NCBI GenBank assembly: GCA_016212375.1
Contig: JACRGH010000044.1
Span: 1,428 to 65,427 of the forward strand
Length of the DNA: 64,000 nt
Reading direction: 5' to 3'
Source of the DNA: Candidatus Micrarchaeota archaeon
Lineage (GTDB): Archaea > Micrarchaeota > Micrarchaeia > Norongarragalinales > Norongarragalinaceae
The notes under the pieces are model-generated. The model saw only the letters and a list, made by a program, of their open reading frames with translations, made no database searches and was not told the DNA's origin. The position numbers and the translations under genes are program-made. Positions 4,965-50,100 of the stretch are shown here, in pieces. How positions within the stretch are numbered: the first letter of the stretch is position 1; each line of letters starts with the position of its first letter.

Positions 4965-7256
4965 ATGCCCCCCCGTAACCCATCCGGCAAACCTGAAAAA
5001 CCCCAAAAAGCCCAGAGCCTCTACTCTCAGGGCGATTCGGGGTACTCCGATTTTGACGAAGTCAAGACGGGTCCGCCCCAAGTGCCGGCATTTGTCAAGA
5101 CCACGCAAAGCTACGCCAAGATGTTCGCCTCGTACGGCAAGAACGGAAAATTCACGGATGAGGAGGCCGACGCGTTCGCATTTTTGGGCTGGGACGTGAC
5201 GCCGGAACAATTCTGCGCCGCGTACAAAGGCATCCGGACCGTCGGGTTGATGATCGGCGTAGTGATGGCGGTCGCGTTTTTCTTTTTGGCGGAAAATTTC
5301 CTGACCGATTTGCTGATGCGCGGCGTGTTTTGCGCCATCTTCATCGCCATGCCGCTTTTGATTTCACAAAACTACCGCAAAACACCATTCCAGCAGGTGG
5401 AAAAGGAAAAAATCCAGTCCTTGGCGTACGTCCCGGAAATCATCAATTATCTCACGATGAGCATGCGGCTGACGCCCAACTTGGAGCGCGCCGTCGAATT
5501 CGCCGCAAGCCACGGCCGCGGAAAAATCGCCGAGGACTTGAAGAAAATCGTCTGGGATGTCCAATTGGGACGTTACGAATCGGTCGAAGAGGGCTTGGAC
5601 GAATTGGCGTACCGCTGGGGCGCGTACAACGACGATTTCAAGCATGCCTTGATGATGATACGCGCGTCGGTGCTGGAGGCGGACAAGGAGAGGCGCTTTG
5701 CCTTGTTGGACAAAGCGGGCCAGGACGTCTTGGAAGGAAGTAAGGAAAAAATGGACCATTACGCGAGGAAATTGCAACAACCCACCGTGTACCTCTATTA
5801 CTTCGGCATCCTCCTGCCGCTGTTAATGGCGATTTTATTGCCCATCGGCTCCTCGCTTGCAAACATCGACTTGCTTTCCCGCGGCGAATTTTTGTTCGTC
5901 GTGTACAACATCATGATTCCCATCGGCGTGTTCGTTTTCGGCAAGAACATCCTGTCCAACAAGCCGCCCACCGGAACTCCGCCTAAGATTCCGGCCAACT
6001 TCCCGGGCCTGCCCAAAACCAAGCCCTTCACGTTCGTGGCCATTGCCTTGATTTTAGGCGGCGTCACCTTGGGCTATTTGACGGACATCGGCACCACGGC
6101 GGACGTCATCAACGGAGCCATCTATTTACCCGCCATGCACGCATTCATCGACCCGACGAACGACAATCCCGACCCGCTTTTGATTCCCGGCACCCTGGGG
6201 GGCATCAACACGTTTTTGGTCCGGCCCGAGGAACGTCAGGAAAAAATCCTCGACCAATTGGCCGTGCTGACCAAACCGGAGGAAGCCGGCGTACCTCGCA
6301 ACAGCCAGATTGCGGAGGAACTGCAAAAAATCCCCTACATCCGCCTTTTCGCACAACTGGGCATTTTCGTAGGCGAATTTGCCATTTTCGGCTTTTTGTT
6401 AGGCACCGGCATCGCCATCAGCATCTACCTGAATGGGAAATATTCCGAACGAAAAAAAGTCCAGGATGACGTTCGCGCCATGGAAACGGAATTCAAAGAC
6501 GCCATGTACGTCCTCGCATCCCGCATGGGCGAGAACAAACCCATTGAGGAAGCGTTGCGCTCCGCGGTCGCATTTTTGCCAAAAAGCAAAATCGGCCGCG
6601 ACGTATTCCGGCGGATTATCGAGAACATCTCCACGTTGGGCATGACTCTGGAAACCGCGATTTTTGACAAGACGTTCGGCGCCCTGCGCCTGGTACCCTC
6701 GCAAATCATCCGCAGCGGCATGCAATTTTTGGTCGACTCCGTGGATTTGGGCGTGGACGTGGCGGCGCGCTCCCTGATTGCGTTGTCCATGCAGTTGCGC
6801 AATTCGGAAAAAATCAACGAGTCCTTGCGCAAATTGTTGCAGGACGTGACCGTGATGCTGTCCACCATGGCAAGCTTTGTCGCACCCATCGTTTTGGGCG
6901 TCGTATCGGCGATGCAACGGCTCATCATCTCATCCTTGGCATCGCAGGGGTCCACAGGCGTGGAAGCAGGGGTGGACGCCGGCACCGGAGGAAGCGCCGT
7001 AGGCGGCCTAGGCGGGGGAGGCTTAAGCAGCATGTTCCAGGGAAAAGGCTTGGAAAACGCGGCAGAGCCCGGCTTGTTCATCCTGGTCCTTGGCATCTAC
7101 GCCTTGCAAATCGTCATCCTCCTGACGTACTTCAACTCGCAAATCGAGGACACCGGCAACGAACTGCACACCTACACCGCCATTGCAAAAAATGTTCCAC
7201 TCGCAATCGGCCTGTACTGTGCCACGGTGTACCTGGCGGGTACGTTTTTCAGTTAG
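4965..7256 (+). CDS. Polytopic membrane protein of the TadC/FlaJ/PilC (T2SS-F) family, the pilus assembly platform. The ORF opens at 4785 but the likely start is Met 4965
   Basis: Cytoplasmic alpha-helical domains alternate with transmembrane helix pairs. It lies directly downstream of the secretion ATPase and upstream of the pilins. The 5' part of the ORF overlaps vapB. Confidence 0.6.
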   Translation: MPPRNPSGKPEKPQKAQSLYSQGDSGYSDFDEVKTGPPQVPAFVKTTQSYAKMFASYGKNGKFTDEEADAFAFLGWDVTPEQFCAAYKGIRTVGLMIGVVMAVAFFFLAENFLTDLLMRGVFCAIFIAMPLLISQNYRKTPFQQVEKEKIQSLAYVPEIINYLTMSMRLTPNLERAVEFAASHGRGKIAEDLKKIVWDVQLGRYESVEEGLDELAYRWGAYNDDFKHALMMIRASVLEADKERRFALLDKAGQDVLEGSKEKMDHYARKLQQPTVYLYYFGILLPLLMAILLPIGSSLANIDLLSRGEFLFVVYNIMIPIGVFVFGKNILSNKPPTGTPPKIPANFPGLPKTKPFTFVAIALILGGVTLGYLTDIGTTADVINGAIYLPAMHAFIDPTNDNPDPLLIPGTLGGINTFLVRPEERQEKILDQLAVLTKPEEAGVPRNSQIAEELQKIPYIRLFAQLGIFVGEFAIFGFLLGTGIAISIYLNGKYSERKKVQDDVRAMETEFKDAMYVLASRMGENKPIEEALRSAVAFLPKSKIGRDVFRRIIENISTLGMTLETAIFDKTFGALRLVPSQIIRSGMQFLVDSVDLGVDVAARSLIALSMQLRNSEKINESLRKLLQDVTVMLSTMASFVAPIVLGVVSAMQRLIISSLASQGSTGVEAGVDAGTGGSAVGGLGGGGLSSMFQGKGLENAAEPGLFILVLGIYALQIVILLTYFNSQIEDTGNELHTYTAIAKNVPLAIGLYCATVYLAGTFFS

Positions 7257-13166: not shown

Positions 13167-13430
13167 ATGCCCCTTGAAACGTTATTGCAGGATTTATGGC
13201 CCTTGGCGCTTTTGTCCGCCATGATGGGCATCGCAATCTTTCCATTGGCCCTATTTTGCTCATTTTTGTATTCATACTTGAAAACGCGGTTCGAACAGGT
13301 GCCAAAACCGGTGTTGTTTTTCGCCGTCACCTTGCTCGGCACGTTCCTCGCCGTTTTGGTAATTTATTTGTATTTGGACCTGACGTTTGCAGACATCGTG
13401 CAAAACCTGCCGGACAACCCGGCGGCATAA
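13167..13430 (+). CDS. Small hypothetical membrane protein
   Basis: Two predicted transmembrane helices; no homolog recognised. Confidence 0.3.
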   Translation: MPLETLLQDLWPLALLSAMMGIAIFPLALFCSFLYSYLKTRFEQVPKPVLFFAVTLLGTFLAVLVIYLYLDLTFADIVQNLPDNPAA

Positions 13431-13662
13431 AGGCGCCGCCCATAATCCATAGGAAAAAGCTGGAAAATCCAGTGAAACGTTCCGGTCACCATAGCGCATC
13501 CCAAAAAAAACGTAGGGCTAAGCTGGAAAAAAAGACCATCCGGCCATAAAAATTCGCCCCTTTTCGAACCTGGTTTTTGGTCGTTTTTCGTTCCGTGCAA
13601 ATGTACAACTCCAACCCGGCCCAAGAAAGCGTATTAAATGGGCGCGCCGTGAGTATTGGCAT

Positions 13663-16600
13663 ATGCGCCGCACGCGTTTTTCCCTCTTCATTTTGATGAT
13701 GCTGGTTTTGGAAATGACCGCACCCATCGTGTGGGCCGACAGCTTCCAAAGCCGGACACAAAGCGCCATTTACTTCGCCGGAACTCCACCCGCAAGCGGT
13801 GCACCTTCCGGCAGTTCAACCTCCGGAACAACCACCACCACTGGAGGCACGGCAGGTACTGGCGCTGGAACTCCCGGCACGCCTGCAACCGGCAGCGGAA
13901 CAGGCCCCGCCGCAAGCACCCCTCCATCCGGAGCGCCGTCCACTGCCGCGTCACCCGGCACTACCACGACCGGCGGCGTTACGCCACCCGTTCCCACAAC
14001 ACGCCCGGCGTCGGCATCCAGCGGACCTGCATGCCAAATCCACTCCATGAGCGATAGCGAGCGTAACCAGTTGCACCAATTCCTGTTTTCATCGAACGGC
14101 GCATTCCGCGGGGATTCGTTCAATGATTTGTCCGATTTGGATGCCCTGGTGCAAGCGGGGGAAAAGCCGACGGACCCGTTCAGCAAGGAGCGCAAAAAAC
14201 AGGACGCGCAGACTCCGGACCCCAATGCCACCGTTGACGTGATGTCCATCGCGGGATTGGCGGGAATGGATAAAATCGGCAAGGATGAAATCGCCAAGAA
14301 ATTCGGCGTGTGGGATAGCAAGACCAACTCCATCAAGAGCAACACGAATATCCCGATTGCCGATGCCAAGAAAATCCTCGCGCAACAACCGGCCGACTCG
14401 CCGTACCAGGAAGCGTTCAGGCAAATCCAGGAGTACATCAACGGCCAGGTCAACAGCAAGGAAAAGGCCGCGGCGGAAAAAGAACAGACCAAGGAATTGG
14501 CGCCGTACGAGCGGTACAAAGTCATCATGCCCGGCTCTGGCAAGGAAGTCAGCTTGGCGGAGGTCTTTCGCGCGCAAAAAATCGACCCGGAAAGCTGTTT
14601 GCTCAAGGATGCGCACATCAACGGCCGCGTCGGGTATATCGCGATTCTGGACACCGACATCACATACGGCACCAAGAACTCGCCCCTTTTGCAAGGCAAC
14701 CAAGTCTCACCGGCCACGGGCAAACCCAATGCCGAACTGACTTCCGTGCGCGGCGGGGAAACCATCAACCAGCACGTCTACGGCCAAAGCGTGGTGGGGT
14801 ACCTGAACCTCAACGGCGGAGGCAATCTGATCGTTCCGGAATTCTACCGCGACTGGATTGTCTTCACCACGGCCTACACCAAAGCCGACTTTTATTTTTC
14901 CATGATCACCTCGATCGCCGCATTTGGCGCCATCAAGGATCTTGAAGCGGTCAAGGATATCAAGCAAAAACAGTTGCAAAACCTCAAGACGCGCGAGCCC
15001 AATCCCCTGCTTGCCGCCCAGATACGGGAACAAACCACCGGCGTGGTCCAAAAGGACGCGGCAGGACGGTATCTTCTGAAAGAAGGCGGCATACAAGTGC
15101 CCGGCGGACAGGCCGCGAGCGTGGAAATCGACAGCGCCACGAACACGCTTAAGTATTACAACACGGCCGGCGCGCACATTGCACCGGCGGACGTAGCCGC
15201 GGTTCCAGACATCGATACGGCGCTAAAAAAACAGCCGGACTTGAGTTTCCGGACAAAAGGCGGGCTTGAAAACGACATCAAGGACGCTGAATTCAACATC
15301 GACTCGCTCCGAAAAGTCAAAGGTACCCTCGAAGGACGCGTCATAACCAGTTTCATGCTCGCGGGCGGCTGGCTGGGCCCTGCCCGCATGGCGTTCAGCT
15401 TGAACAACGGTATCTTATTCCAGGCCCGAAGCCAGGCCGACGACAAATTCCTACGTTTATTGGCCAACAAGGAAGTGCTCAGCGATTTCAAGAAGGCGTC
15501 CAGTTTCTTGGCCATCGGAAAAATCGAGGAAACGGTCGCCAAATACGCCGGATTGGGCCAGACGCCTCAAAAAGCATTTTTCGCCAAGAATTTGTTGTTC
15601 CTCAATTACCCCGAATCGCAAAAGACGCCCAACTACGAATCCAGCACGGTCCTGCGAAGCGAGGACGATGGCACCATCGGCATCAACACCCGTTGGCGGG
15701 GCGGGGCGTACACGCTGAACTACGAGGATATGCGGGCGTTTGCCGACAAACAAGGACCCGAGTCGTTCACGTCATTGGCCATGGTGTCCAACAACATCCT
15801 GGCCGAACCGGCGCTGGAGGATAAGAACCTCAAATCGCTTACCGCGTTTTTCTCCGTCGCCGTCCCGTTCATTGTTACGCGGAAAATATTCCAACTGCAG
15901 GAACGCACCCTGGGCGCCGGCATCTTCCTGACTACATTGGAGTATCTGGACATCAATGAAAACTATGCCAAAGACGTCCAGTGCAACATCGATGAGTACA
16001 ATGATTTGAAAACCGCTTATCGGCAAGCATTCACCGCCAGCGCAGCGACCACAATCCTGCTTTTGTCCCGCTCATTCCTCACCCCGTTCCGCAAATTCCT
16101 TCAAACCACGGATTTTGGAAAATCCCTCGGTGCCGGCATATTGAATGTCTTGGACTACACCAACCCCGGGGATGCCTGGCGCGTGCACGTCGGGAACCGC
16201 GGCATCACCTACACCTCCAATTGCAAGGACCAGATGCAGACCATCCTGTCCTGGCAAAGCATCCCGGAACGCGTGAGCACGACGTCCAATGCCTTGGCGG
16301 ACAAGTTGCCGGCGGTCAACGACCAGTTGTCCAAAATCGGGCTGTCCAAAGTATTGGGCGCCAACGCGGAGGCGGCGCAGACCGAAGCCAAAATCAAGAA
16401 CCTAAAGGACGTGTTGAACCTGCGCGCCGTGACGCAGAACCAAGGCGGATTCGTGCGCACGCCCGAACTGCTTTACCTGCACATCGACCAATCCACATCC
16501 ATGACCAAAGGAGCGCTGTATGATTTGGTCAACAACGCATGCGGATTGCAGGACCGCATCCAAAGCAAGGACGGCCGCAGTTTGTCGTTCGGCGAAGGGT

Positions 16601-17883
16601 TGGAGGCCAACAACGCCGACGGCTCAAAGGCGCTTTCCTTCAAATCCGCCATCTGGAAATTGCGCGCATTGGCCAACAACAAAGTACAGGCGTTGGGCCG
16701 CATCATCATCCCAAACACCATCATCCAGAGCAACTTGATGGGCGGGACGGATGCGTTTGTGGAAATCGCAAGCACGGGTCAAAGCACGCTGGTCAACCCG
16801 CCCTGCGACCTGACGTCGGCCATCCGACAGCTGACCGGACGGGACATCGGGACCGACTTGACGCAGGCCATCGGCAAGGTCCGCACCGTCGAGACGTCGG
16901 AAGGGCAAGCCGGATTGCTGGATGGGCAGATTGATTACGTCGGGCGCAACGGCGTCGGCGCGTCGGTGCCAACTCCGGAAGACTTGCGAAAATCCATTAT
17001 TTCCGGCGGCCGCATCAGCGTGCGCAACAACGGACAGGCCGTCCTTTATGGCGCCACGGGAAACAGCCAACAGCCCATCGGTACCCTCAAGAGCATCATC
17101 GGTGACAGCGGGGCATTGCATTATGACCAACCCACAGGGCAAATCAGCCTCATCATCTACTCGATTTTTGAAACGTCCAACCAGAACATCCAGAATTACA
17201 ACCTGGACACGCGGGGTTCGGGGGCGCAAATCCAGGTGCAAGCCAAGCGTGGTTTTGAGGACTCGGCCAACAAATTGAACGCCGGATTGGACAAGATTGC
17301 CGGAAAGGACGGCATCACGTCGTTTGAGACCAAGGACCACATCTACTACATCACCCCGGATGGAAAGCTCAGGGTCATCGACAAGAACACGGGCAAAGCC
17401 ACGGATTACAACATCACCGGACCGATTACAAAAGACGGCAACGGCAACTTGGTCATTCCCACGGACAAGGGCGACTTCAAACTGAATTTGACCAACGAAA
17501 ACGGACAGCCGACGCTCAACGCGGAAGGGCCGGACGGCCTAAAGGAAGTGCTTGCCTTGTTGGCAGCGCGCGGCGAAAACGGCATCATGACGTTCAATCC
17601 CTCCACCGGCGCCATCAACGTGTACAACGGCCAGGACGTGCCACTTAACCCGGCGTTTGCGCAGAACGGCATCGGCTTTTCCGGCAACAAGGACGGCACC
17701 ACGTCCGGCGTCCCCGCGGATAGCCCCTTTTTCGCACCCTCGTCGAGCAGTTCGACGACCACGGATTCGGCACCGCCTAAGCTGTTCCTCCCGTCGTGGC
17801 CGGAAGAGTTGCCTTGGGCGGCACTGTTTGCGGGATTGATTTTGTTCGGAGTCGTGGCGATACGGTACCGGAAAGTCGGATAA
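13663..17883 (+). CDS. Giant secreted cell-surface protein (1406 aa). It has a signal peptide, a Thr/Gly/Pro-rich stalk and a C-terminal transmembrane anchor with a basic tail that resembles a PGF-CTERM/archaeosortase sorting signal
   Basis: N-terminal MRRTRFSLFILMMLVLEMTAPIVWA; a TTTTGGTAGTGAGTPGTPATGSG linker; C-terminal SSSSSTTTDSAPPKLFLPSWPEELPWAALFAGLILFGVVAIRYRKVG. Confidence 0.65.
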   Translation: MRRTRFSLFILMMLVLEMTAPIVWADSFQSRTQSAIYFAGTPPASGAPSGSSTSGTTTTTGGTAGTGAGTPGTPATGSGTGPAASTPPSGAPSTAASPGTTTTGGVTPPVPTTRPASASSGPACQIHSMSDSERNQLHQFLFSSNGAFRGDSFNDLSDLDALVQAGEKPTDPFSKERKKQDAQTPDPNATVDVMSIAGLAGMDKIGKDEIAKKFGVWDSKTNSIKSNTNIPIADAKKILAQQPADSPYQEAFRQIQEYINGQVNSKEKAAAEKEQTKELAPYERYKVIMPGSGKEVSLAEVFRAQKIDPESCLLKDAHINGRVGYIAILDTDITYGTKNSPLLQGNQVSPATGKPNAELTSVRGGETINQHVYGQSVVGYLNLNGGGNLIVPEFYRDWIVFTTAYTKADFYFSMITSIAAFGAIKDLEAVKDIKQKQLQNLKTREPNPLLAAQIREQTTGVVQKDAAGRYLLKEGGIQVPGGQAASVEIDSATNTLKYYNTAGAHIAPADVAAVPDIDTALKKQPDLSFRTKGGLENDIKDAEFNIDSLRKVKGTLEGRVITSFMLAGGWLGPARMAFSLNNGILFQARSQADDKFLRLLANKEVLSDFKKASSFLAIGKIEETVAKYAGLGQTPQKAFFAKNLLFLNYPESQKTPNYESSTVLRSEDDGTIGINTRWRGGAYTLNYEDMRAFADKQGPESFTSLAMVSNNILAEPALEDKNLKSLTAFFSVAVPFIVTRKIFQLQERTLGAGIFLTTLEYLDINENYAKDVQCNIDEYNDLKTAYRQAFTASAATTILLLSRSFLTPFRKFLQTTDFGKSLGAGILNVLDYTNPGDAWRVHVGNRGITYTSNCKDQMQTILSWQSIPERVSTTSNALADKLPAVNDQLSKIGLSKVLGANAEAAQTEAKIKNLKDVLNLRAVTQNQGGFVRTPELLYLHIDQSTSMTKGALYDLVNNACGLQDRIQSKDGRSLSFGEGLEANNADGSKALSFKSAIWKLRALANNKVQALGRIIIPNTIIQSNLMGGTDAFVEIASTGQSTLVNPPCDLTSAIRQLTGRDIGTDLTQAIGKVRTVETSEGQAGLLDGQIDYVGRNGVGASVPTPEDLRKSIISGGRISVRNNGQAVLYGATGNSQQPIGTLKSIIGDSGALHYDQPTGQISLIIYSIFETSNQNIQNYNLDTRGSGAQIQVQAKRGFEDSANKLNAGLDKIAGKDGITSFETKDHIYYITPDGKLRVIDKNTGKATDYNITGPITKDGNGNLVIPTDKGDFKLNLTNENGQPTLNAEGPDGLKEVLALLAARGENGIMTFNPSTGAINVYNGQDVPLNPAFAQNGIGFSGNKDGTTSGVPADSPFFAPSSSSSTTTDSAPPKLFLPSWPEELPWAALFAGLILFGVVAIRYRKVG

Positions 17884-17953: not shown

Positions 17954-18373
17954 ATGCTCGACATCCTTCTTGCGTTAAAAGAATCCCACCGCTTCCACGC
18001 CAGCCGACTGGAGCTGCACGTCGTACCCAAGCATAAGACGCTGGGACTCAACGGCTACATTCGGTTGCGCAACTACGCCCCCCTGTCGGATAAGGCGGAG
18101 CCGGAGCGCTTTTTGGGCGAAGAAAGCAAGCAAATCAAAGCCGCCATCAAAACAGTCGTGCCAAAAGAGTGCGTCATCGAAGTCAAATTGGAGCCCAACG
18201 TCCAGCAGTTCAAAGGCGGCGCCTACTTTTTCAGCATCACGCGCACATTCAAAACCAAAAAAGAGCTGGACGAAACGTTGGCTCAGATGATTGCCGACGG
18301 CACCATCGATGAGCACATCTTCCACGTCGCGTCGAAATGGGCGGCCGAGATTTCGGGCGGGCATATGCATTGA
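17954..18373 (+). CDS. Hypothetical protein
   Basis: ORF with ordinary composition; no recognisable motif. Confidence 0.35.
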   Translation: MLDILLALKESHRFHASRLELHVVPKHKTLGLNGYIRLRNYAPLSDKAEPERFLGEESKQIKAAIKTVVPKECVIEVKLEPNVQQFKGGAYFFSITRTFKTKKELDETLAQMIADGTIDEHIFHVASKWAAEISGGHMH

Positions 18374-18474
18374 AACGCATAGGATAACTGAAAAAAAGAA
18401 TAGGAGTGGAGGAGGGGGGAGTTGCAACGGACCTTCTTTTCGAAAGAAGCGCCACCAAGAAAAATCCGATTAGA

Positions 18475-18635
18475 CCCCGAACCCCCCGAGTCTTGTTTTG
18501 CGAATCAAAATGGAGGAGGGGGGATTCGAACCCGCCGCGGGACCACAGGGGGAGCACCCCCTATAGTCCTACGTTACCCCGAACCCCCCGAGTCTTGTTT
18601 TGCGAATCAAAATGGAGGAGGGGGGATTCGAACCC
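18475..18635 (-). repeat. Two direct copies of a 59-bp tRNA-like unit (18475-18533 and 18577-18635). Each is a T-arm plus acceptor 3' strand plus a conserved trailer
   Basis: On the minus strand each copy reads GGGTTCGAATCCCCCCTCCTCCA-TTTTGATTCGCAAAACAAGACTCGGGGGGTTCGGGG. Only copy 2 has a perfectly paired T-stem (GGGGG/CCCCC). Confidence 0.6.
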
Positions 18636-18800
18636 CCGAAGGCGCTAGGCCACAGGATGGCTTACCCAAATCTGATTCGCGCACAAAAATAATTTTCTTT
18701 CTTTTGGCCGACCAGATTTTCTTTCTTTTCGGGAAAAGAAAGAAAAAATGGGCCTTAAGTCCTGCCCTTTTGGCCAGACTCAGGACACTCCTCCGCACAG
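18612..18800 (-). ncRNA. Candidate atypical tRNA-like gene. A 5' acceptor strand GGAGGAG at about 18790 would match the 3' acceptor CTCCTCC-A at about 18612, with roughly 115 nt between them. Possibly a tRNA with very large or non-canonical introns, or a split or decayed tRNA
   Basis: The acceptor strands are complementary and the T-arm is archaeal-type, but I could not fold a canonical D-arm or anticodon arm by hand. Confidence 0.25.
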
Positions 18801-18866
18801 AAGATGCCTCAAATCCGTTTTAAGCCGCTCGGTTGGCACAAAAAGAGAAGTCAAAGAAAGCCGAAA

Positions 18867-19484
18867 TCAGTAACCGCGTTTGGCTTTGCCTTTGAGCGCT
18901 TTAAGATGGCCCACGTCGTTGAGTTTGACGACGTAAACGCCGGATTTTTCCCACCATAGCTCGTTGATGCACGCGTTGGCCTGTGAGAAATGCCCGTGTG
19001 TTTTCAGCAGGATGCGGAGCAGTTCGCCGTTTAAGATGCCATGACCCGCAACAAAGACCGTTGCATTATCTGGAAGCGGCCGGATGAGCTTCAGAAACCG
19101 GCGCACACGCTTCCGGATGTCGAGCAGGCTTTCACCCCCTTTGGGCCGAAAAGCGGTCTTGCGGAAGTTCTCCTGCAACCGTGGGTCCTTCGCATACGCA
19201 TCAACAAAACGCATACCTTCCCAAACACCTTTGCCGCGCTCCATCAAATCGTCGACAAAAACGGCTTGCAGATGCGGATGATGCTTGCGCACCGCTTCCA
19301 GCGTGTCACGGGCTCGGTCCAGGGGACTGCCGAAAAAGTAATCGATTTTTTCAGTCTTCAACACCAAACCCAAAGCCTTCGTTTGGCGTTTTCCCAACGC
19401 CGACAGCCGGCCGTGGATGTGGCCCTGGAAACGCATTTCAGCGTTTTCGATGGTTTGGCCGTGGCGGACTAGCAAAATTCTCAT
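18867..19484 (-). CDS. Histidine phosphatase superfamily protein (phosphoglycerate mutase-like)
   Basis: N-terminal LVRHGQT (RHG catalytic motif). Confidence 0.7.
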   Translation of the reverse strand: MRILLVRHGQTIENAEMRFQGHIHGRLSALGKRQTKALGLVLKTEKIDYFFGSPLDRARDTLEAVRKHHPHLQAVFVDDLMERGKGVWEGMRFVDAYAKDPRLQENFRKTAFRPKGGESLLDIRKRVRRFLKLIRPLPDNATVFVAGHGILNGELLRILLKTHGHFSQANACINELWWEKSGVYVVKLNDVGHLKALKGKAKRGY

Positions 19485-20922: not shown

Positions 20923-22095
20923 ATGATGCATGCCATGGTTTACCGGAAAACACCACGAAAACAGCACGGGTTGCTCACCGCCGTCGCAAACAACGACGTG
21001 GACGCATTGTTGGAATTAAAGGAAAAAGGCAAGCCGATAAACAATGCAACATTGGGACACGCATTACGGATAGCATCGGAAGTCGGAAGCCTAGAATTAA
21101 TACCATTAATTTTCAGCGACATCAAAAAATTAAAAGCGGCAACAAAAACAACGGATGAACAAGGAAAAACAGCACTCCACATCGCTTCGGAAAAAGGACA
21201 TGAAAATTTCGCCGATTTTTTGATTGAAGCCGGGGCCAACGTCAATGTTGCGGACAAGCTAGGACATACGCCACTGCATGCCGCGGCCAAAGAAGGACGA
21301 GCAAACATCATCCGGCTACTCCTCCGGCATAAAGCCGACCCCGAACAAGTTGACGAAAAAGGGGAAACGCCGCTCTACCATGCGGTCGTCTATAACCGAA
21401 TCAATGCAGTCCATGCGTTAGGCGAAAAATCAGACGTCAACCGGCATTTCGAACACCAAACCAACCCATTCGGCCCGGTCAGGGACAAATATGATTTGAA
21501 AATACTCGAAAATCTCGGTTTTCCAAAATTGGAGCAAAGCGAACAGGGAAACACGTTGCTGCATGTCGCCACACTCCGTGGAGATTCGGAAATGGCAACG
21601 GCGCTCATGCACCATGGGGCAGACCCGACCGAGCGCAACGGATACGGGGTGACTCCGATCCATTTGGCGGCCTACCGGGGCGATTTTTCTACGCTAAAAC
21701 AACTCGTGGGAAAAAGTACAAACCGCATCAAAATTAAAGACAACGCAGGCTTCACCCCGCTGCATTATGCGGCAAAAGCGAGATTGGATGATGCGAACGA
21801 ACACACCGAATTGATGGATTGGCTGATTAGCCAGGGGGCGAACGTTTCCGCCGAAAGCCACAAAAAAATTACACCGCTTCACTTGGCAGCAGACCGATAC
21901 GATGCGGAAAAAGCCATGGGATTACTCTTGGAAAAAGGCGCAAGAATCGATGCCCAAGACCACGAAGGCAATACCCCGCTTCATTATGCCGCACAAGGTA
22001 GGAGGAAAAATTTTGACTACTTGGTTTCAAGAGGCGCCGGTACAACAATACGGAATCAAAAGGGGCATCTACCGGCATACGACCGAATGGTTTAA
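20923..22095 (+). CDS. Ankyrin-repeat protein with about nine repeats
   Basis: Repeated G-TPLH-AA...G......LL..GA..N motifs. Confidence 0.8.
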   Translation: MMHAMVYRKTPRKQHGLLTAVANNDVDALLELKEKGKPINNATLGHALRIASEVGSLELIPLIFSDIKKLKAATKTTDEQGKTALHIASEKGHENFADFLIEAGANVNVADKLGHTPLHAAAKEGRANIIRLLLRHKADPEQVDEKGETPLYHAVVYNRINAVHALGEKSDVNRHFEHQTNPFGPVRDKYDLKILENLGFPKLEQSEQGNTLLHVATLRGDSEMATALMHHGADPTERNGYGVTPIHLAAYRGDFSTLKQLVGKSTNRIKIKDNAGFTPLHYAAKARLDDANEHTELMDWLISQGANVSAESHKKITPLHLAADRYDAEKAMGLLLEKGARIDAQDHEGNTPLHYAAQGRRKNFDYLVSRGAGTTIRNQKGHLPAYDRMV

Positions 22096-22105
22096 AAAAA
22101 AGACA

Positions 22106-22177
22106 AGCCCCGGACGAGGATCGAACTCGTGACCCCCTGTTTACGAAACAGGTGCTCTACCGCTGAGCTACCGAGGC
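22106..22177 (-). tRNA. tRNA-Thr (anticodon CGU), no encoded CCA
   Basis: Minus-strand fold: GCCTCGG-TA-GCTC-AGCGGTA-GAGC-A-CCTGT-TTCGTAA-ACAGG-GGGTC-ACGAG-TTCGATC-CTCGT-CCGGGGC-T. Confidence 0.85.
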
Positions 22178-23247: not shown

Positions 23248-24366
23248 ATGGAAAAAAGCGCTACCGGCGGACTCAGTTTACTCCTAGTGTCGGTGTTTCT
23301 TTTTTCGGCGTCACTCCAGGCCGCAACGTCCGCGTCCAACGCCATCCCATCCTGCCCCAATAACCAAGTGTGCATGTTTTACGGCGCGTCTTTGGAAAAA
23401 AACACACCCGGACCTTCCGGCACCGGGTTTTCCACCTCGAAATTCGTCTGCCCGGTCAATATCCCCATCACCGGCACGTTCGGCGCCCCATATACCAACG
23501 CCAATGGAGAAACCCGCAGACGGCCCGGAATCGAAATGCGGGTGCCGGAAAACACGGACGTTAAATCTCCGGCAGCGGGAAAAGTGCTGGAGACCGGTTT
23601 TGAACAAACCGGTGCCGGACATTTCATCCTCATCCGCCACGCGACAAATCCCAACGTGGAGAGCAAAATCGGTTACCTGCAAGGACCGTCCACCAAACGG
23701 GGGGGAGAATCGGTCAAAGCGGGCGAAACAATAGGCAAATCCGGAAAAAGCGGTGCCGCGCTATGGCCCTCAGTTTATTTCGAACTGACACGCGCCACCA
23801 TTCCACAAATCGAGGTAGAAGACATCTGTAAATCCACCCCCGTCGTGTCAAGTTCGACCGTTGCTCCGGTAAAGGCGACGGTTGCAGGCCGAGTGGACTG
23901 TACGCAATTTTCGAACAATCCGGTGCCGGAGTCCTGGAGCGTCGTGCCGGGCGGCCGCTTCGGCAGCCAACGGGCGTACCCGGGCGGACACAGCGGATTC
24001 GATTACGGGGGATTCAACTGCGGGCAACCCGTCAAAGCGGTTTGGGCAGGCCAAGTGCGATACTACCGGAACACCGCTGCAGGCTACGGCAACGAAGTTT
24101 CCATCAAAACCGCGTGCACCGACGGGACTGAAAAAATTGTGACGTACGACCACCTCCAGGGGTTCAACGCGGCCGTATTGGACAAAGGTGCAGTACAAGC
24201 CGGAGACGTCATCGCCTACCTTGGAAATACCGGAGGCAACTATGAATGCCACTTGCACGTCAACGTCTTTGCATCGCCATTTCGAATCCAAAACGGATTG
24301 GATGCCGGCAACGTCATGAATCCAGAAGGACTGGTCAGGGGCGGCTTGCAGGGCCATTTGGCATAA
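23248..24366 (+). CDS. Secreted protein with a degenerate LytM-like domain and a C-terminal catalytic M23 peptidase domain
   Basis: Signal peptide; HSGFDYG (HxxxD) and CHLHVNV (HxH) zinc motifs in the C-terminal half; Cys pairs; paralog of 24463-25563. Confidence 0.7.
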   Translation: MEKSATGGLSLLLVSVFLFSASLQAATSASNAIPSCPNNQVCMFYGASLEKNTPGPSGTGFSTSKFVCPVNIPITGTFGAPYTNANGETRRRPGIEMRVPENTDVKSPAAGKVLETGFEQTGAGHFILIRHATNPNVESKIGYLQGPSTKRGGESVKAGETIGKSGKSGAALWPSVYFELTRATIPQIEVEDICKSTPVVSSSTVAPVKATVAGRVDCTQFSNNPVPESWSVVPGGRFGSQRAYPGGHSGFDYGGFNCGQPVKAVWAGQVRYYRNTAAGYGNEVSIKTACTDGTEKIVTYDHLQGFNAAVLDKGAVQAGDVIAYLGNTGGNYECHLHVNVFASPFRIQNGLDAGNVMNPEGLVRGGLQGHLA

Positions 24367-24462
24367 ACATACACATTCCACCATCACGAAATCCACCGCA
24401 TGCAGTTCAATAAAGATGCCGGAAACTGAACGGTTTTAAGTCCGGCTTGCATCGATTGATTC

Positions 24463-25563
24463 ATGCACGCGCGATGGACCGGAGCCATTTTTTTCCTAGG
24501 CTTGCTATTTATTGCGACATCCGTACAGGCCGCAACCATGCCAACGTGTCCGGCCAACCAGGTCTGCTTCTTTTACGGTGCCAGTTTGGAAAAAACGGCA
24601 AGCCAAAAATCGTTTTCGACCACCGGATTTTCCTGCCCGGTGGCGGCGGCCATAACCGTTCCGTTCAGCCACGCACGAAACGCCAATGGCAAAATCCGGG
24701 CCCATTTGGGCATCGGCTTGGACACACCCGTAGGCACGGCCGTGAAAGCGGCGGCGAACGGGAAAGTCATACAGACTCCGACCGATTATTCGGATTTAGG
24801 CACCGTCATCATTCTGCGCCATTCGGATAATCCCAAAGTGGAAACCCAATACGGCCACCTGCAAAAAGCCAATGTTAGACCCGGCGACACCGTCAAAAAA
24901 GGCGACATCATCGGATTATCAGGCCAAAGCGGACAGGGCACAGACAGGCCGATGCTGTATTTTGAACTGGACCGCGACGGCAATCCCAGCTCGGAAGTGC
25001 AGGACATCTGCAAGAACGCCTATGTGGCGCCGGCTCCGATAAGCAAACCCGGTCAAACCCCAAAACCGGCTATTCCAAATTCAGGCAATAGCGTGGTGGG
25101 CGGTCCATCGCTCGGAACCACTCAAATTCTGAGCATCCTAAAAGCGGTACGCTCGCCAGCGGCCGATGCGGACACGGCAACGTGTTTCTATGAAAAAAGC
25201 CAGCAGTACAACATCGATGTCGCGTATATGCTCGCGTTTTTTGGGCAAGAATCCACATGGGGAACAGCATCCGGCTACGCCAGCACGCATACCGTTGGTA
25301 ACATCGTCAAAAACGCACCGGGAAGCTACTTATGCGATCAGGCATCCAATGGCCGGTTTTGTTCCTACAGCAGTTGGTGCCGGGGTGCAGAGCATTGGTA
25401 TTACTACATCAAAAATTCGCCACTTTATCTGCCCCAGGGTAAAACGACACCGGAACAAATCATCCCGATTTACGCGCCCGCCAGTGAAAATAACGTGGGA
25501 TCGTACGTCGCATTCGTCAACCGGTGCGTAACCAATTGGAGAGCGGGTTCTTCGATCTGTTGA
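24463..25563 (+). CDS. Secreted protein with an N-terminal LytM/M23-like domain and a C-terminal glucosaminidase-like domain
   Basis: Signal peptide; the N-terminal module shared with 23248 (CP.NQVC.FYGASLEK...F.CPV); C-terminal AFFGQESTWGTASGYASTHTVGNIVKN resembles the N-acetylglucosaminidase family. Confidence 0.55.
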   Translation: MHARWTGAIFFLGLLFIATSVQAATMPTCPANQVCFFYGASLEKTASQKSFSTTGFSCPVAAAITVPFSHARNANGKIRAHLGIGLDTPVGTAVKAAANGKVIQTPTDYSDLGTVIILRHSDNPKVETQYGHLQKANVRPGDTVKKGDIIGLSGQSGQGTDRPMLYFELDRDGNPSSEVQDICKNAYVAPAPISKPGQTPKPAIPNSGNSVVGGPSLGTTQILSILKAVRSPAADADTATCFYEKSQQYNIDVAYMLAFFGQESTWGTASGYASTHTVGNIVKNAPGSYLCDQASNGRFCSYSSWCRGAEHWYYYIKNSPLYLPQGKTTPEQIIPIYAPASENNVGSYVAFVNRCVTNWRAGSSIC

Positions 25564-26013: not shown

Positions 26014-26040
26014 AAAGAAGCCCCCGACGCGAAGTGCAAC
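26014..26040 (-). repeat. Degenerate duplicate of the 3' end of tRNA-Thr(GGU) (TTCGCGTCGGGGGCT), with a conserved leader
   Basis: Minus-strand GGACTAAGGGGCGCTTCCCGTGGTCC...TTCGCGTCGGGGGCTTC. The leader resembles the GGACTATAGGGGGTGCTCCCCCTGTGGTCC found beside the 18475 repeat. Confidence 0.5.
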
Positions 26041-26127
26041 CCGGACCACGGGAAGCGCCCCTTAGTCCCAGGTTCCCCCGAACCCCCAACGAATGCTCGC
26101 GAATCACAAAATGAAAGAAAAAGAAAG

Positions 26128-26239
26128 AGCCCCCGACGCGAATTGAACGCGCGACCTCGTCCTTTTCGGAAAAGCCAATGGCAAAGTGCCGTTTGCTTTC
26201 TTACCATGGACGCGCTCTACCAGGCTGAGCTACAGGGGC
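26128..26239 (-). tRNA. tRNA-Thr (anticodon GGU) with a ~39-nt intron at or near the canonical 37/38 position
   Basis: GCCCCTG-TA-GCTC-AGCCTGGTA-GAGC-G-CGTCC-AUGGUAA-[intron GAAAGCAAACGGCACUUUGCCAUUGGCUUUUCCGAAAAG]-GGACG-AGGTC-GCGCG-TTCAATT-CGCGT-CGGGGGC-T. Confidence 0.75.
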
Positions 26240-47109: not shown

Positions 47110-50100
47110 ATGCCGAATCCGGAAATCAAAGGCCTACTTTTCGTGCTGGTTTTGTCGCTTCTTTTGGGCACGTCCGTTTCGGCGGCGGTCACAAACGGGG
47201 ATGAATCAGCCCAACCCCGATACACGTCGATCAGCGCGTTGGACACGACGACGCTGTATAATATGAACAAGTTTCCAACACGGGTCGACACTGTCAAGGA
47301 CTGCTCGCAGAACGCGGACCCGGAAACGAAACTATACTGCGCATTAATCCAAGCGGCGCCATCCCTATTCCAATCCTCCGTATTGGAAATAAACTTGGTC
47401 GTCAATTACGGCCCTAAAAGCCTACAAAGCATTTCCAAAAGCCCGAAAACATTGCATCCGCAAAAAGACACCTCAACCGCGACGCAATACGCGTTTGACT
47501 CCAGCGGCGACGGATATAACGCCATCTTTTTGGACCAAGGTACGCTGTACGTGAACGTCGCGGATTTGAGCACCGATACCGCGACGGCCATCATCAAGCA
47601 CCTGTACGACGAGAGTTACGCATTCAAACTGAACGCGGAGTGCATCATCCGGACGTCCACCAATGCGAAAGCCTTGGCGTTCAAGAACTGCCAGGTACTG
47701 GACGCGGCCAAGACGCCATTGGATAAATTGGACGTCAAGAAAATCGAATGCACGAAGCCCGCCAAAACAGGCATCATCGCCATAACGCAACCAATCAACG
47801 GGCAATGTCCCGCGACGGTGCCAAACTCAGGACAAACCGCCGCGTTGCAACCGGCTGGAAAAGGCACGCTGGATTCGGACCAAACGCCAAATTCCAATCC
47901 AGGCGAATGCAATGCCGCCGATTTTGACCCACCTATTAATGACCCGAAACCGAGGGCAGATGATTCACATGGAAATTATTGGTTTGGAGACCCGTCGAAT
48001 AACCAAGCCGGACATCACGAAGGCGTGGACATTATAGGCGAAGTTGGAAAAACAAAAATAATGGCAATAGGGCCGGGAATAGTCGAAAAATACGAAACAA
48101 CATTTTGCGGAAACGCAGTACTGATCAAACACGATTGCACGATTAACGGAAAAGTATTCCGGACCAAATATTGCCATCTTGACAAAACAAGCAAAAAACC
48201 GGCCGTAGGTTCGCAAGTGACCAAAGGCCAAACCCTTGGCTTGGTTGGAAAAACCGGCAACGCAGCAAATTCGGACGTCCCACACCTCCACATCGAATAC
48301 AACGCAGGAGGCACATTTACTCTGGGACAACCATCAAAAGGCGGGGATTTCGACCCGGTGGCTAAAGGGTTTATGCCCGCAACATTCAATAAGCCGTCTT
48401 CGGGCACACGGGTCGCCTCGCCACAAGGCATAACATTACTTGATTTCGCCGGATCCGAACAACTTCCCACAATCCAAGAATATATCCAAAACACATTCCC
48501 AAATGCGGGCGAGTTCAAGGCAGGCTCTCGCCATAATCCGAAAAGCACTAACTTCAACCCGGATCCGTGTTTGGCGACTAACCCAGACGATGACGCCAAT
48601 GGATTTTTCGGATATCGCAATCGCGGGACGGCGGCAAAACCCAACCCAGGTTGTGTCCACGCCGGAATCGATATTCGGGGAATCAAAGCCGGGATCGGTG
48701 GAAAACCGGTCAAAGCCATGCTTTCTGGAAAAATCTCAATAGTAAAGCCTCAATACCAAATTCAAACAGACTGCGCCATCATCGTGGACTCCGGGGATTG
48801 GGTCGTTTCATACGGGCACGTCCAACTGGATGAATATTGTGACACGAAACGAATAGGGGAACAAATATCCGCAGGACAGGAAATAGCAAAAATAGCGACC
48901 CAATTGTCTCCAAGTAACGGCAATGAATTGGACATTAAAATGCTTTACAAAGGAAACGTCCCTGAATTGAAAGCATTGACTATCCAACAGTTGAAATCGA
49001 ACACCAACCCTCCATATTCCAAGTATTTCAAACGTTATCCTGAAACAAAGACAATTTTTGCTGCCAAAGACTTCACCTTCGACGTGCCCAACTACGATGA
49101 CTACTTTTTATGGGAAGCGTACAGCACTTCATTAAAAGTTAAAAGTGCCGTGACGCCTTCAACGCCTACGCCAAGCAAAGGGACCCAAAAACCAACTCCA
49201 CCCAATACTCAAACCCCGACAACTGCCACGAATACCGACACCCCCGTTACCGACACCCTGTCCCAATTATGCGTCTATTACTACATCGATTCCACCGACG
49301 GCGCCAAGGACAAATTCTTCGACGTGGGCTTTGCCGCGTACGCCGGGGAAGGCGGTGCGTGCATCGTGGGAAGGGCGGGGGCCCAAAAACCCGGGATTAC
49401 GTATCCATCCGGATATACGGCATACGTCAACACCGCCCAATTGCCCGAATCCGAGTCGTACGAAGGCTGTTACTTGGCGAAAATGCCGCTGAACAAGCAC
49501 GGAGCAGATTACCCGACCGGCGCGGTCGTCAAGTTGTTCTTGAGCAAAAGCGCGGACGTATTCAAGGAAACGGGGCCGGCCATGTTGGACAAAGGCATCG
49601 TCCGCACCGAGGCGTCAGCGATGAAAATCGGCAATCCGGTTTGTGGCGTGCAAAAAACCACCAAAGGACCGGTAGTGGATAATGGGGAAGCGGGGAAGAA
49701 GTTCTTGGAATATGCGATGGAATTGAAGGGAATTCCTTACGCCCTTTGTGATACATGCATCCCAGATGGAGTCGCTTGCGCCACCATACCAATGTATGCA
49801 TACACGAAAATGATTGCGGCAGGCTATACGCTTCCGCAAGAATTTTACAACCTAGCAAAAAAAGAAAAGGTCCCATTCAAAGGTAAGGAGGTAAAAAACC
49901 CTGCAAATGCAGGCGTTTGGATGGACATCATCAATATTCCGGATATGACTCAACTACCGAAAAAAATCCAACTACCGTCAAATGCATACCCCAAGTCATT
50001 GCATAATTCTGACACGTGGGGAGGCGCAGCGGAAATTTTGGGTTGGGAAGTGTCTAAACAAAACGCAAAACCAGGCGACTTGGTAGTTTTCAACCGTCCC

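Follow-up and report, generated by a model that had tools for sequence, protein, structure and literature searches.

A stretch of 64,000 nucleotides (nt) from a Candidatus Micrarchaeota archaeon (contig JACRGH010000044.1), which we call the window, carries on the minus strand of positions 18613-18794 what is, judged from its sequence, almost certainly a functional tRNA-Leu(UAA) gene with one intron after nucleotide 37. Directly behind this gene stand two short, homologous, non-coding modules that each end in a copy of the tRNA's own 3' end. An initial annotation had described the locus as a tandem tRNA-like repeat next to a possible tRNA with a ~115-nt interruption. Run with its intron option, ARAGORN reported tRNA-Leu(UAA) with one 95-nt intron between nucleotides 37 and 38, the gene measuring 182 nt with its intron. 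Default ARAGORN and Rfam at the gathering threshold missed the gene, their sole call in the window being a tRNA-Thr(CGU) at 22106-22177. A permissive Rfam search of 18200-19000 returned just weak noise resembling transfer-messenger RNA (tmRNA) or microRNA (miRNA), which came from the T-arm and from an A/U hairpin. Even with introns allowed, ARAGORN recovers one of ten homologous tRNA-Leu loci. Because standard tRNA finders miss the gene, inventories of Micrarchaeota metagenome-assembled genomes will wrongly report tRNA-Leu(UAA) as missing.

Exon 1 (41 nt, minus strand 18754-18794) comprises the acceptor 5' strand GGAGGAG, the D-arm, the 5' strand of the anticodon stem and the anticodon TAA (18755-18757). 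The acceptor strand lies at 18788-18794, in agreement with the position of about 18790 proposed earlier. Exon 2 (46 nt, minus strand 18613-18658) supplies the 3' strand of the anticodon stem, the variable arm, the T-arm, the acceptor strand CTCCTCC and the discriminator A; CCA is not encoded. The initial annotation had been unable to fold a D-arm or an anticodon arm. Both are present in exon 1 directly after the 5' acceptor strand, and they were missed because the search looked between the acceptor halves as though the insert had another place. Both exons belong to one contiguous gene of 182 nt and follow each other in the normal order, which rules out the split or permuted tRNA that had also been considered. 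Upstream, ~24-30 nt from tRNA position 1, an A/T-rich box CTTAAAA (minus strand 18818-18824) can be read from the sequence as a candidate archaeal TATA box. An equivalent A/T box is found at equal distance upstream of tRNA-Leu in all relatives, and the element would act as the promoter of the gene.

The intron (95 nt, minus strand 18659-18753) occupies the canonical position 37/38 and is bounded by a strict bulge-helix-bulge (BHB) motif of the hBHBh' type, with a folding z-score of -4.3. Two 3-nt bulges, AG|G and CC|A, hold both cleavage sites. They enclose a central helix of 4 bp in which C32-U-U-A35 pairs with UAAG (CUUA/UAAG), and they are flanked by the 4-bp outer helix CCCA/UGGG and the anticodon stem CAGGA/UCCUG. 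The archaeal splicing endonuclease would cut at this motif and ligation would give an 87-nt class II tRNA; splicing in silico indeed yields a mature tRNA-Leu(UAA) of 87 nt with a long variable arm. Thus, both a BHB-bounded intron and the cloverleaf it should yield, which the initial annotation had proposed to look for, were found. Of its suggestion of very large or multiple non-canonical introns the large insert stands, but the intron is single, canonical and strict in its motif, and it measures 95 rather than ~115 nt.

We gathered relatives by scanning metagenomes for the D-loop/anticodon pattern and by collecting contigs that encode homologues of the neighbouring protein of 139 amino acids (aa). 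This gave nine further distinct loci with a tRNA-Leu gene, or ten loci with the window. The intron sits at the identical site in all ten, measures 84-151 nt in the relatives, and its removal in silico yields an 87-nt tRNA-Leu(UAA) in 10/10 loci. In the alignment of the ten spliced sequences 24/24 cloverleaf pairs are 100% paired, with five compensatory pairs spread across four helices. Shuffling matched the observed percentage of paired positions, the compensatory pairs and cells and the covariation score in 0-2 of 500 cases each, and one compensatory pair was the most that slid controls produced; for further pair types the observed number is not above that of shuffles. The outer helix of the BHB covaries as well, appearing as CCCA/TGGG, TCCG/CGGA, GCCG/CGGC and CCCGA/TCGGG among the ten loci, with a strict motif in six and a relaxed one in four. 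In ARMAN-2, a member of the Micrarchaeota, 56% of the tRNA genes are disrupted and a broad-specificity epsilon2 endonuclease cuts strict and relaxed BHBs (PMC3239211). Since tRNA genes are heavily disrupted and the epsilon2 endonuclease is present in ARMAN-2, a tRNA-Leu with an intron is a kind of gene to be expected.

The interior of the intron is more conserved than its splicing would seem to demand. The introns of eight of the nine relatives are 71-92% identical to the window copy, compared to ~30% for shuffles. The ninth, from locus L029, carries a large insertion and reaches 42% compared to 10% for shuffles. The neighbouring protein is 51-75% identical in relatives with an examinable tRNA locus. 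The most prominent feature is a hairpin formed by UUUUUUCUUUCUUUU and AAAAGAAAGAAAA (minus strand 18712-18751), an inverted repeat with 19-nt arms that are 89% complementary, which had already been noted as a long T/A palindrome. This pyrimidine/purine hairpin, 12-20 bp long, is the consensus structure of nine introns. The L029 intron, 151 nt long, holds ~60 nt extra with a hairpin of their own at its apex (L029:~5970-6264 in plus-strand coordinates, the tRNA being on the minus strand). The purine tract AAAAGAAAGAAAA recurs within the intron at 18693-18705 (minus strand), and this second copy is kept in all relatives, the repeated tract AAAAGAAAGAAA being conserved among the tRNA-Leu introns. 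The motif GCGAAT (minus strand 18675-18680) forms invariant columns in the alignment of nine introns. Among the sequences searched, the combination of hairpin, second purine tract and GCGAAT was found solely in this intron and its homologues, and no Rfam family matches the intron. The initial annotation held that a GGTCGGCC...AAAAGAAAGAAAA block resembles a promoter module. This block occurs nowhere else in the 64 kb, and the idea was rejected, as AAAAGAAAGAAAA and GGTCGGCC...AAAA lie inside the intron alone in the window and inside the homologous introns alone in the relatives. A C/D-box small RNA was likewise discarded, with neither RUGAUGA nor CUGA boxes recognised by eye. As the intron is conserved far beyond the needs of splicing, we regard it as a candidate for an intron-derived functional or circular RNA. 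We speculate that its hairpin might adopt two states, one pyrimidine tract pairing with either purine tract, and, equally as speculation, that the excised intron might persist as a stable or circular RNA.

Behind the tRNA gene a perfect 60-nt sequence occurs twice on the minus strand, as copy A (18576-18635), made up of the tRNA 3' end and the leader of the first module (U1), and as copy B (18474-18533), made up of the end of U1 and the leader of the second module (U2). The two copies are direct, 100% identical, 102 nt apart and separated by a unique 42-nt sequence. Each consists of the last 23 nt of the tRNA followed by a 37-nt trailer TTTTGATTCGCAAAACAAGACTCGGGGGGTTCGGGGT (minus strand). The tRNA part, GGGTTCGAATCCCCCCTCCTCCA, covers part of the 5' strand of the T-stem, the T-loop, the 3' strand of the T-stem, the acceptor 3' strand and the discriminator A. 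The initial annotation had thus correctly recognised two direct copies with a T-arm and acceptor end on the minus strand and a shared trailer, its lengths of 59 nt for the repeat and 36 nt for the trailer each falling one nucleotide short. The level expected by chance is close to zero, with trailer matches in 0/100 shuffles of the window and a mean of 0.01 20-mers per shuffle. A third, partial copy of the tRNA end, differing at three of 20 positions and missing from the initial annotation, is found at 18407-18426. The three places share the 14-mer TCCCCCCTCCTCCA, which reaches from T-loop nucleotide 60 to the discriminator and starts at 18613, 18511 and 18407; we refer to it as the core. An exact search of viral and genome collections with the 20-nt tRNA end found just unrelated bacterial tRNA/tmRNA-like ends with an encoded CCA.

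Core copy 1 (TCCCCCCTCCTCCA, minus strand 18613-18626) is the tRNA's own last 14 nt. Module U1 (102 nt, minus strand 18511-18612) then runs from a 37-nt leader, TTTTGATTCGC...GGGGGGTTCGGGGT, through a central hairpin, GGAC-TATA-GGGGG-TGCT-CCCCC-TGTG-GTCC, and GGGTTCGAA to core copy 2 (18511-18524). Module U2 (104 nt, minus strand 18407-18510) repeats the 37-nt leader of U1, continues with a different body that contains the hairpin CTTCTTT-CGA-AAAGAAG, and ends with GTCCGTTGCAAC and core copy 3 (18407-18420). Both follow one plan that starts just after the discriminator: a T-rich leader, a G-run, a hairpin, a GTTGCAA-like motif resembling a T-loop, and the last 14 nt of the tRNA. Neither contains an open reading frame (ORF). 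We agree with the initial annotation that this is not a CRISPR array, as the repeat, present in two to three copies, is a tRNA end, and what lies between the copies is a set of mutually homologous units. Oligo-T serves the archaeal RNA polymerase as a terminator, and a T7 tract read from the sequence after the last core copy (minus strand 18391-18397) is likely to terminate the whole unit. The U2 hairpin CTTCTTTCGAAAAGAAG together with GGTCCG (18434-18449) resembles a shortened intron hairpin with GGTCGG (18723-18738), at 81% over 16 nt; this could be low-complexity chance, or intron and module could share an origin. A reading of the modules as giant introns of the T-loop (59/60), the core starting at T-loop nucleotide 60, was rejected by eye, with 2-3 of 4 bp in the central helix and no outer helix.

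We found the same module family behind a second intron-bearing tRNA (minus strand 26128-26239, 38-nt intron). The Rfam tRNA model matches this gene with 46.1 bits and an E value of 6.6e-9 just in a local search, the whole-window gathering run having missed it, and ARAGORN with introns labels it Phe(GAA) with the intron inside the anticodon. Its homologue at L027:1203-1310 reads as tRNA-Thr(GGU) with a canonical 37/38 intron, and from the sequence Thr(GGU) appears to be the more consistent reading of the window gene. Directly behind it, at 26019-26127 on the minus strand, lie a module of 94 nt (26034-26127) and a 15-nt copy of the tRNA end (26019-26033), detected by nhmmer with an E value of 2.7e-10. 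This Thr-linked module has a homologous leader, G-run, hairpin and GTTGCAC and belongs to the same family as 18407-18612. Its copied end TTCGCGTCGGGGGCT, present at 26019-26033 and at 26128-26142, is the second tRNA's own 3' end. The arrangement recurs in L027, with a module and a copy of the tRNA's own 3' end behind tRNA-Thr(GGU). In the alignment, blocks of 32 and 15 nt read identical between the U1 body and the L027 Thr-linked module (the first 19 nt at 100% by BLAST), and the U1 body is closer to that module than to the Thr-linked module of the window itself. A profile built from eight units found the family solely directly downstream of tRNAs and on the tRNA strand in the ~440 kb searched.

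The neighbourhood of tRNA-Leu is syntenic in the relatives. A gene of ~1380 aa and a gene of 139 aa point towards a variable segment, on the far side of which tRNA-Leu, a His_Phos gene and further genes face them. In the window the first two are a 1406-aa ORF (13663-17883) and a 139-aa ORF (17954-18373), which have no Pfam match and are syntenic in all relatives examined; the histidine phosphatase is MBI5226305.1 and the L3 protein of the window MBI5226317.1 (NCBI). The segment between the tRNA-Leu 3' end and the 139-aa gene is the sole variable spot in these otherwise syntenic surroundings, and in relatives it holds GNAT plus 55-aa or PIN plus 73-aa pairs, an rve gene, or small ORFs. The pairs look like toxin-antitoxin cargo (L029, L034-L037, L042 and L030; GNAT with a 52-55-aa ORF, 59 aa in L042, or PIN with 73 aa). 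L038 has the rve-domain gene at this spot, and the window has no cargo gene there.

Across the ten lineages, 0-3 complete modules stand behind the orthologous tRNA-Leu. Five of the ten carry modules, with one to three complete ones each, and L029 has an additional fourth unit that is truncated and lacks a core. Occupied and empty tRNA-Leu sites thus both occur among the relatives. The subtypes of modules and their order differ between related genomes in a mosaic manner, blocks that are 87-100% identical across genomes being combined differently beside a neighbouring protein that is 51-75% identical. For instance, the right-hand 58 nt of U2 are 93% identical to an L029 module, the L013 module shares 87-100% identity with two L029 units, and the modules of L031 and L014 are 92-97% identical around a 46-nt apical insertion. 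In L031 the T-stem variant CCCTCC of the tRNA is also found in the distal copy. The modules of L014 and L027 have a 46-nt apical insertion in common, GTGGTTGCCGACGATGC...GCATCGTCGGTTGC. A similar architecture was seen in another lineage: on an unrelated contig from an archaeal metagenome (L028:4055-4217), the sequence behind an intron-less tRNA-Leu(UAA) consists of 76-nt units repeated perfectly in tandem (2.1 copies plus degenerate ones), each of which begins with the tRNA 3' end CCTCCTCCTGC.

We wondered how such modules might have come to lie behind two different tRNA genes. The body is constant but the copied end changes with the tRNA, and the G-rich Thr core offers no partner for the 5' G-run, which makes the copied end a feature of the junction and not of a common fold. 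When this is combined with presence and absence among relatives, with the tandem build-up of units and with their mosaic distribution, the indications are of repeated insertion at a specific site, the T-loop/3' end of the tRNA. Copies of the tRNA 3' segment, in direct orientation, border the modules, and the tRNA remains intact (cores at 18613, 18511 and 18407, and at 26128 and 26019), and the identity blocks begin in the T-loop and extend to the tRNA end. An intron-bearing tRNA-Leu followed by modules that arose by site-specific insertion is the explanation that we favour overall, by a modest preference. That the modules themselves are products of repeated insertion at the T-loop/3' end of tRNA genes may be correct, with our confidence evenly poised. 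The duplicated tRNA end would then be an attachment (att) core or a target duplication, and each new unit would settle beside the tRNA, displacing the older units outward. The latest event, an insertion or else gene conversion from one junction to its neighbour, would be marked by the perfect 60-nt repeat. The modules themselves would be miniature elements, non-autonomous and moved in trans, or else the scars that larger elements left behind. Of the ideas in the initial annotation, a decayed tRNA target site comes closest to this explanation of the repeats, but they are more than decayed tRNA, belonging to a module family that is found behind a different tRNA too and that related genomes share as a mosaic.

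Several observations weigh against insertion. No recombinase was found in the window: the flanking ORFs that were scanned show no recombinase domain, tblastn with the integrase and the rve protein of relatives matched just the tRNA-Thr overlap, and the modules are free of ORFs. A full-length element flanked by cores was not found in any locus examined, and the attP junction and the module bodies were absent from IMG/VR in an exact-match search of low sensitivity. An element of 100 bp is too small for a conventional circular intermediate. Terminal inverted repeats are lacking, the left end matching the reverse-complemented right end no better than shuffles do in eight modules. The cargo genes of the relatives lie outside the core copies and not between them. 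Finally, the central hairpin covaries, with U-G pairs that are possible only on the tRNA-sense strand, a pattern less typical of a dead scar than of an RNA under selection or of single-stranded DNA.

This covariation fits better with modules that are functional non-coding RNAs. They would be transcribed together with the tRNA or from a start in the T/A-rich leader, tRNA 3' processing would release them, their hairpin would be under selection and the copied tRNA 3' end would be a handle for processing or recognition. Across subtypes 97% of the hairpin is paired and seven of its 11 pairs are compensatory; its pairing, compensatory and covariation values are each beyond all of 500 shuffles, and two is the maximum in slid controls. 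Its conserved U-G pairs suit the sense strand alone, and every module shares the strand of its tRNA and follows it directly. L013, L014 and L027 have no T-tract between tRNA and module, so that read-through transcription is likely, and T4-T7 follows the last core in most loci (none in L031). The leader, read from the sequence, places an A/T box ~20-25 nt ahead of the G-run. Weighing against functional RNAs, the module is missing behind tRNA-Leu in five of ten relatives, the number of complete modules varies between zero and three, and the subtypes are shuffled among genomes, two of them with 46-nt apical insertions. Folding energies are ordinary as well (z of +0.28 for U2 and +0.32 for the Thr-linked module), the copied end stays outside any common fold, the 5' G-run of the module failing to pair with the G-rich Thr core, and no Rfam family matches. 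We consider functional RNAs a serious but rather unlikely explanation.

Alternatively, no mobile unit was involved and the repeats arose locally: the tRNA 3' region would have slipped or been duplicated in tandem and then decayed into pseudo-tRNA fragments, while gene conversion from the live tRNA would keep the ends identical. U1 does keep a T-arm with 4/5 bp and is called a pseudo-tRNA by ARAGORN at the 80% threshold, modules of the alpha type resemble by eye a shortened tRNA-Leu that starts GGAGGAG-CG-T..GAAACTGG, the borders of the perfect 60-nt block are as sharp as those of a conversion tract, and the 76-nt tandem repeat of L028 begins with a tRNA end behind an unrelated, intron-less tRNA-Leu. 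But homologous bodies also follow another tRNA and finish with a copy of its 3' end, and blocks of 87-100% identity are reordered between genomes whose neighbouring protein is 51-75% identical. As decay of tRNA-Leu cannot yield Thr ends, local duplication with decay is rejected for the Thr-ended copies, and we think it improbable as a general account. A further reading takes U1 (18511-18612) for a second tRNA gene, unusual but functional, or for the 3' half of a split tRNA, in line with its tRNA-like length, its T-loop TTCGAAT and an acceptor-like 5' G-run that can pair with CTCCTCC through G-U pairs. ARAGORN makes the call only when the threshold is 80%, though, with a 6-nt anticodon loop and without an assignable anticodon; the T-stem contains a C.C mismatch, Rfam finds no tRNA at E<=10 in a search of 800 nt, and the unit is missing from most relatives, all of which makes a tRNA very improbable. 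Least credible of all is an artefact of assembly, even for a tandem repeat that is longer than typical k-mers on a metagenome-assembled contig. In the Logan assembly of SRR12113407 two contigs identical to the window stop exactly 30 nt (k-1) inside the 60-nt repeat from opposite sides, which requires two read contexts and indicates that the repeat is genuine. The unique 42-nt sequence between the copies and the similar architecture in relatives from other samples argue the same way. Site-specific insertion remains the explanation that we prefer.

Other features of the window include a second tRNA-linked variable spot, around tRNA-Thr(CGU) (22106-22177). An ankyrin-repeat gene (20923-22095) lies directly downstream of its 3' end in the window, an RNase H gene adjoins the tRNA instead in L029 and L043, with the tRNA in opposite orientation in L043, and in L031:7856-8417 the ORF of a tyrosine integrase runs into the tRNA, 20/20 aa matching the tRNA region of the window. 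A downstream copy of the tRNA-Thr(CGU) 3' end was not found in the window or in five relatives, and no unit of the module family was seen behind this tRNA. A low-threshold ARAGORN call of a 'tRNA-Leu(CAA)' with a 136-nt intron at 13276-13505 was discarded, as it has no Rfam support and looks coding or intergenic. Peptidase_M23 occurs three times, and SLT and Amidase_2 occur in a 1460-aa protein, in the regions 23248-25563 and 47110-51492. Such hydrolase domains directed at the bacterial cell wall, spread over several proteins of this micrarchaeal window, are notable in an organism without murein.

The tRNA-Leu(UAA) gene belongs to a known kind of gene, and it is the conserved long intron and the module family that are worth following up. 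Tentatively, the modules might be an undescribed family of non-autonomous elements that settle precisely after tRNA genes in DPANN archaea and copy the final 14 nt of the tRNA, or a new class of small RNAs that are linked to tRNAs and co-transcribed with them, and, separately, the tRNA-Leu intron might be a functional RNA, possibly circular. If the modules are mobile, they would represent a very small type of site-specific archaeal element and would single out the 3' ends of tRNA genes as hotspots of genome change in DPANN archaea with reduced genomes. The variable spot behind tRNA-Leu is also where relatives keep their toxin-antitoxin-like pairs and a transposase-like gene.

Archaeal tRNA genes with BHB introns, including the disrupted set of ARMAN-2/Micrarchaeota (PMC3239211; review PMC4090602), provide the closest comparison for the tRNA-Leu gene, which shares with them the canonical position, the strict hBHBh' motif with its 3-4-3 arrangement, a CCA that is not encoded and a host lineage rich in introns. 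The window intron is longer, with 95 nt (84-151 nt in relatives) compared to 25 and 13 nt for the two assayed introns of ARMAN-2 (PMC3239211). It also differs in that the interior of the tRNA-Leu intron is conserved across genomes whose neighbouring protein is 51-75% identical. The tRNA-Trp intron of Haloferax carries C/D boxes, which were not seen by eye in the window intron.

Integration at tRNA genes was reportedly classified by Williams in 2002. Integrative elements that target tRNA genes and the tandem arrays they form have been described (PMC6563490, PMC8371274): tyrosine-recombinase elements build arrays by re-using one integration site, and elements targeting tRNAs in Thaumarchaeota have att cores as short as 8 bp with a median of 17 bp (PMC6563490). 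We found no directly matching paper by title or abstract in the literature on Micrarchaeota mobile elements or on miniature integrative elements at tRNA genes. Like these elements, the modules show direct repeats of a tRNA 3' segment that begins in the T-loop, an intact tRNA, arrays and a variable neighbourhood, and a relative of the window has an integrase at a nearby tRNA (L031, tRNA-Thr(CGU)). In contrast, the units here are only ~85-130 nt long and non-coding, no integrase lies between the repeats, one body occurs with two different tRNA cores, and no full-length element was seen in the loci examined.

Family 2 casposons insert at Methanosarcina tRNA-Leu genes with a 14-bp target duplication and form tandem copies (PMC4779613). 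The likeness consists in the 14-bp duplication at a tRNA-Leu and in tandem copies separated by the shared duplication alone. The modules, however, lack terminal inverted repeats, neither Cas1 nor PolB was seen, and their blocks of identity differ in length: the smallest shared block measures 14-15 nt in four cases and 19-23 nt in others, and the window reaches 60 nt. A miniature inverted-repeat transposable element derived from a casposon is ruled out by the absent terminal inverted repeats. In Caldiarchaeum subterraneum, tRNA fragments beside an intron-bearing tRNA have been read as traces of recombination by a mobile element (PMC3293823), which resembles the present case: there too the host is uncultured and tRNA fragments neighbour a tRNA gene with an intron. 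In Caldiarchaeum, however, the element is 1.8 kb long, encodes a recombinase and is associated with a 5' fragment, whereas here the units are ~100 nt long, contain no ORF and carry 3' fragments. With no recombinase found in the units or near them, no terminal inverted repeats, no free copies in IMG/VR and a block of variable length, the modules are assigned neither to the tyrosine-recombinase elements nor to the casposons; they fit neither family and are filed as a new variant.

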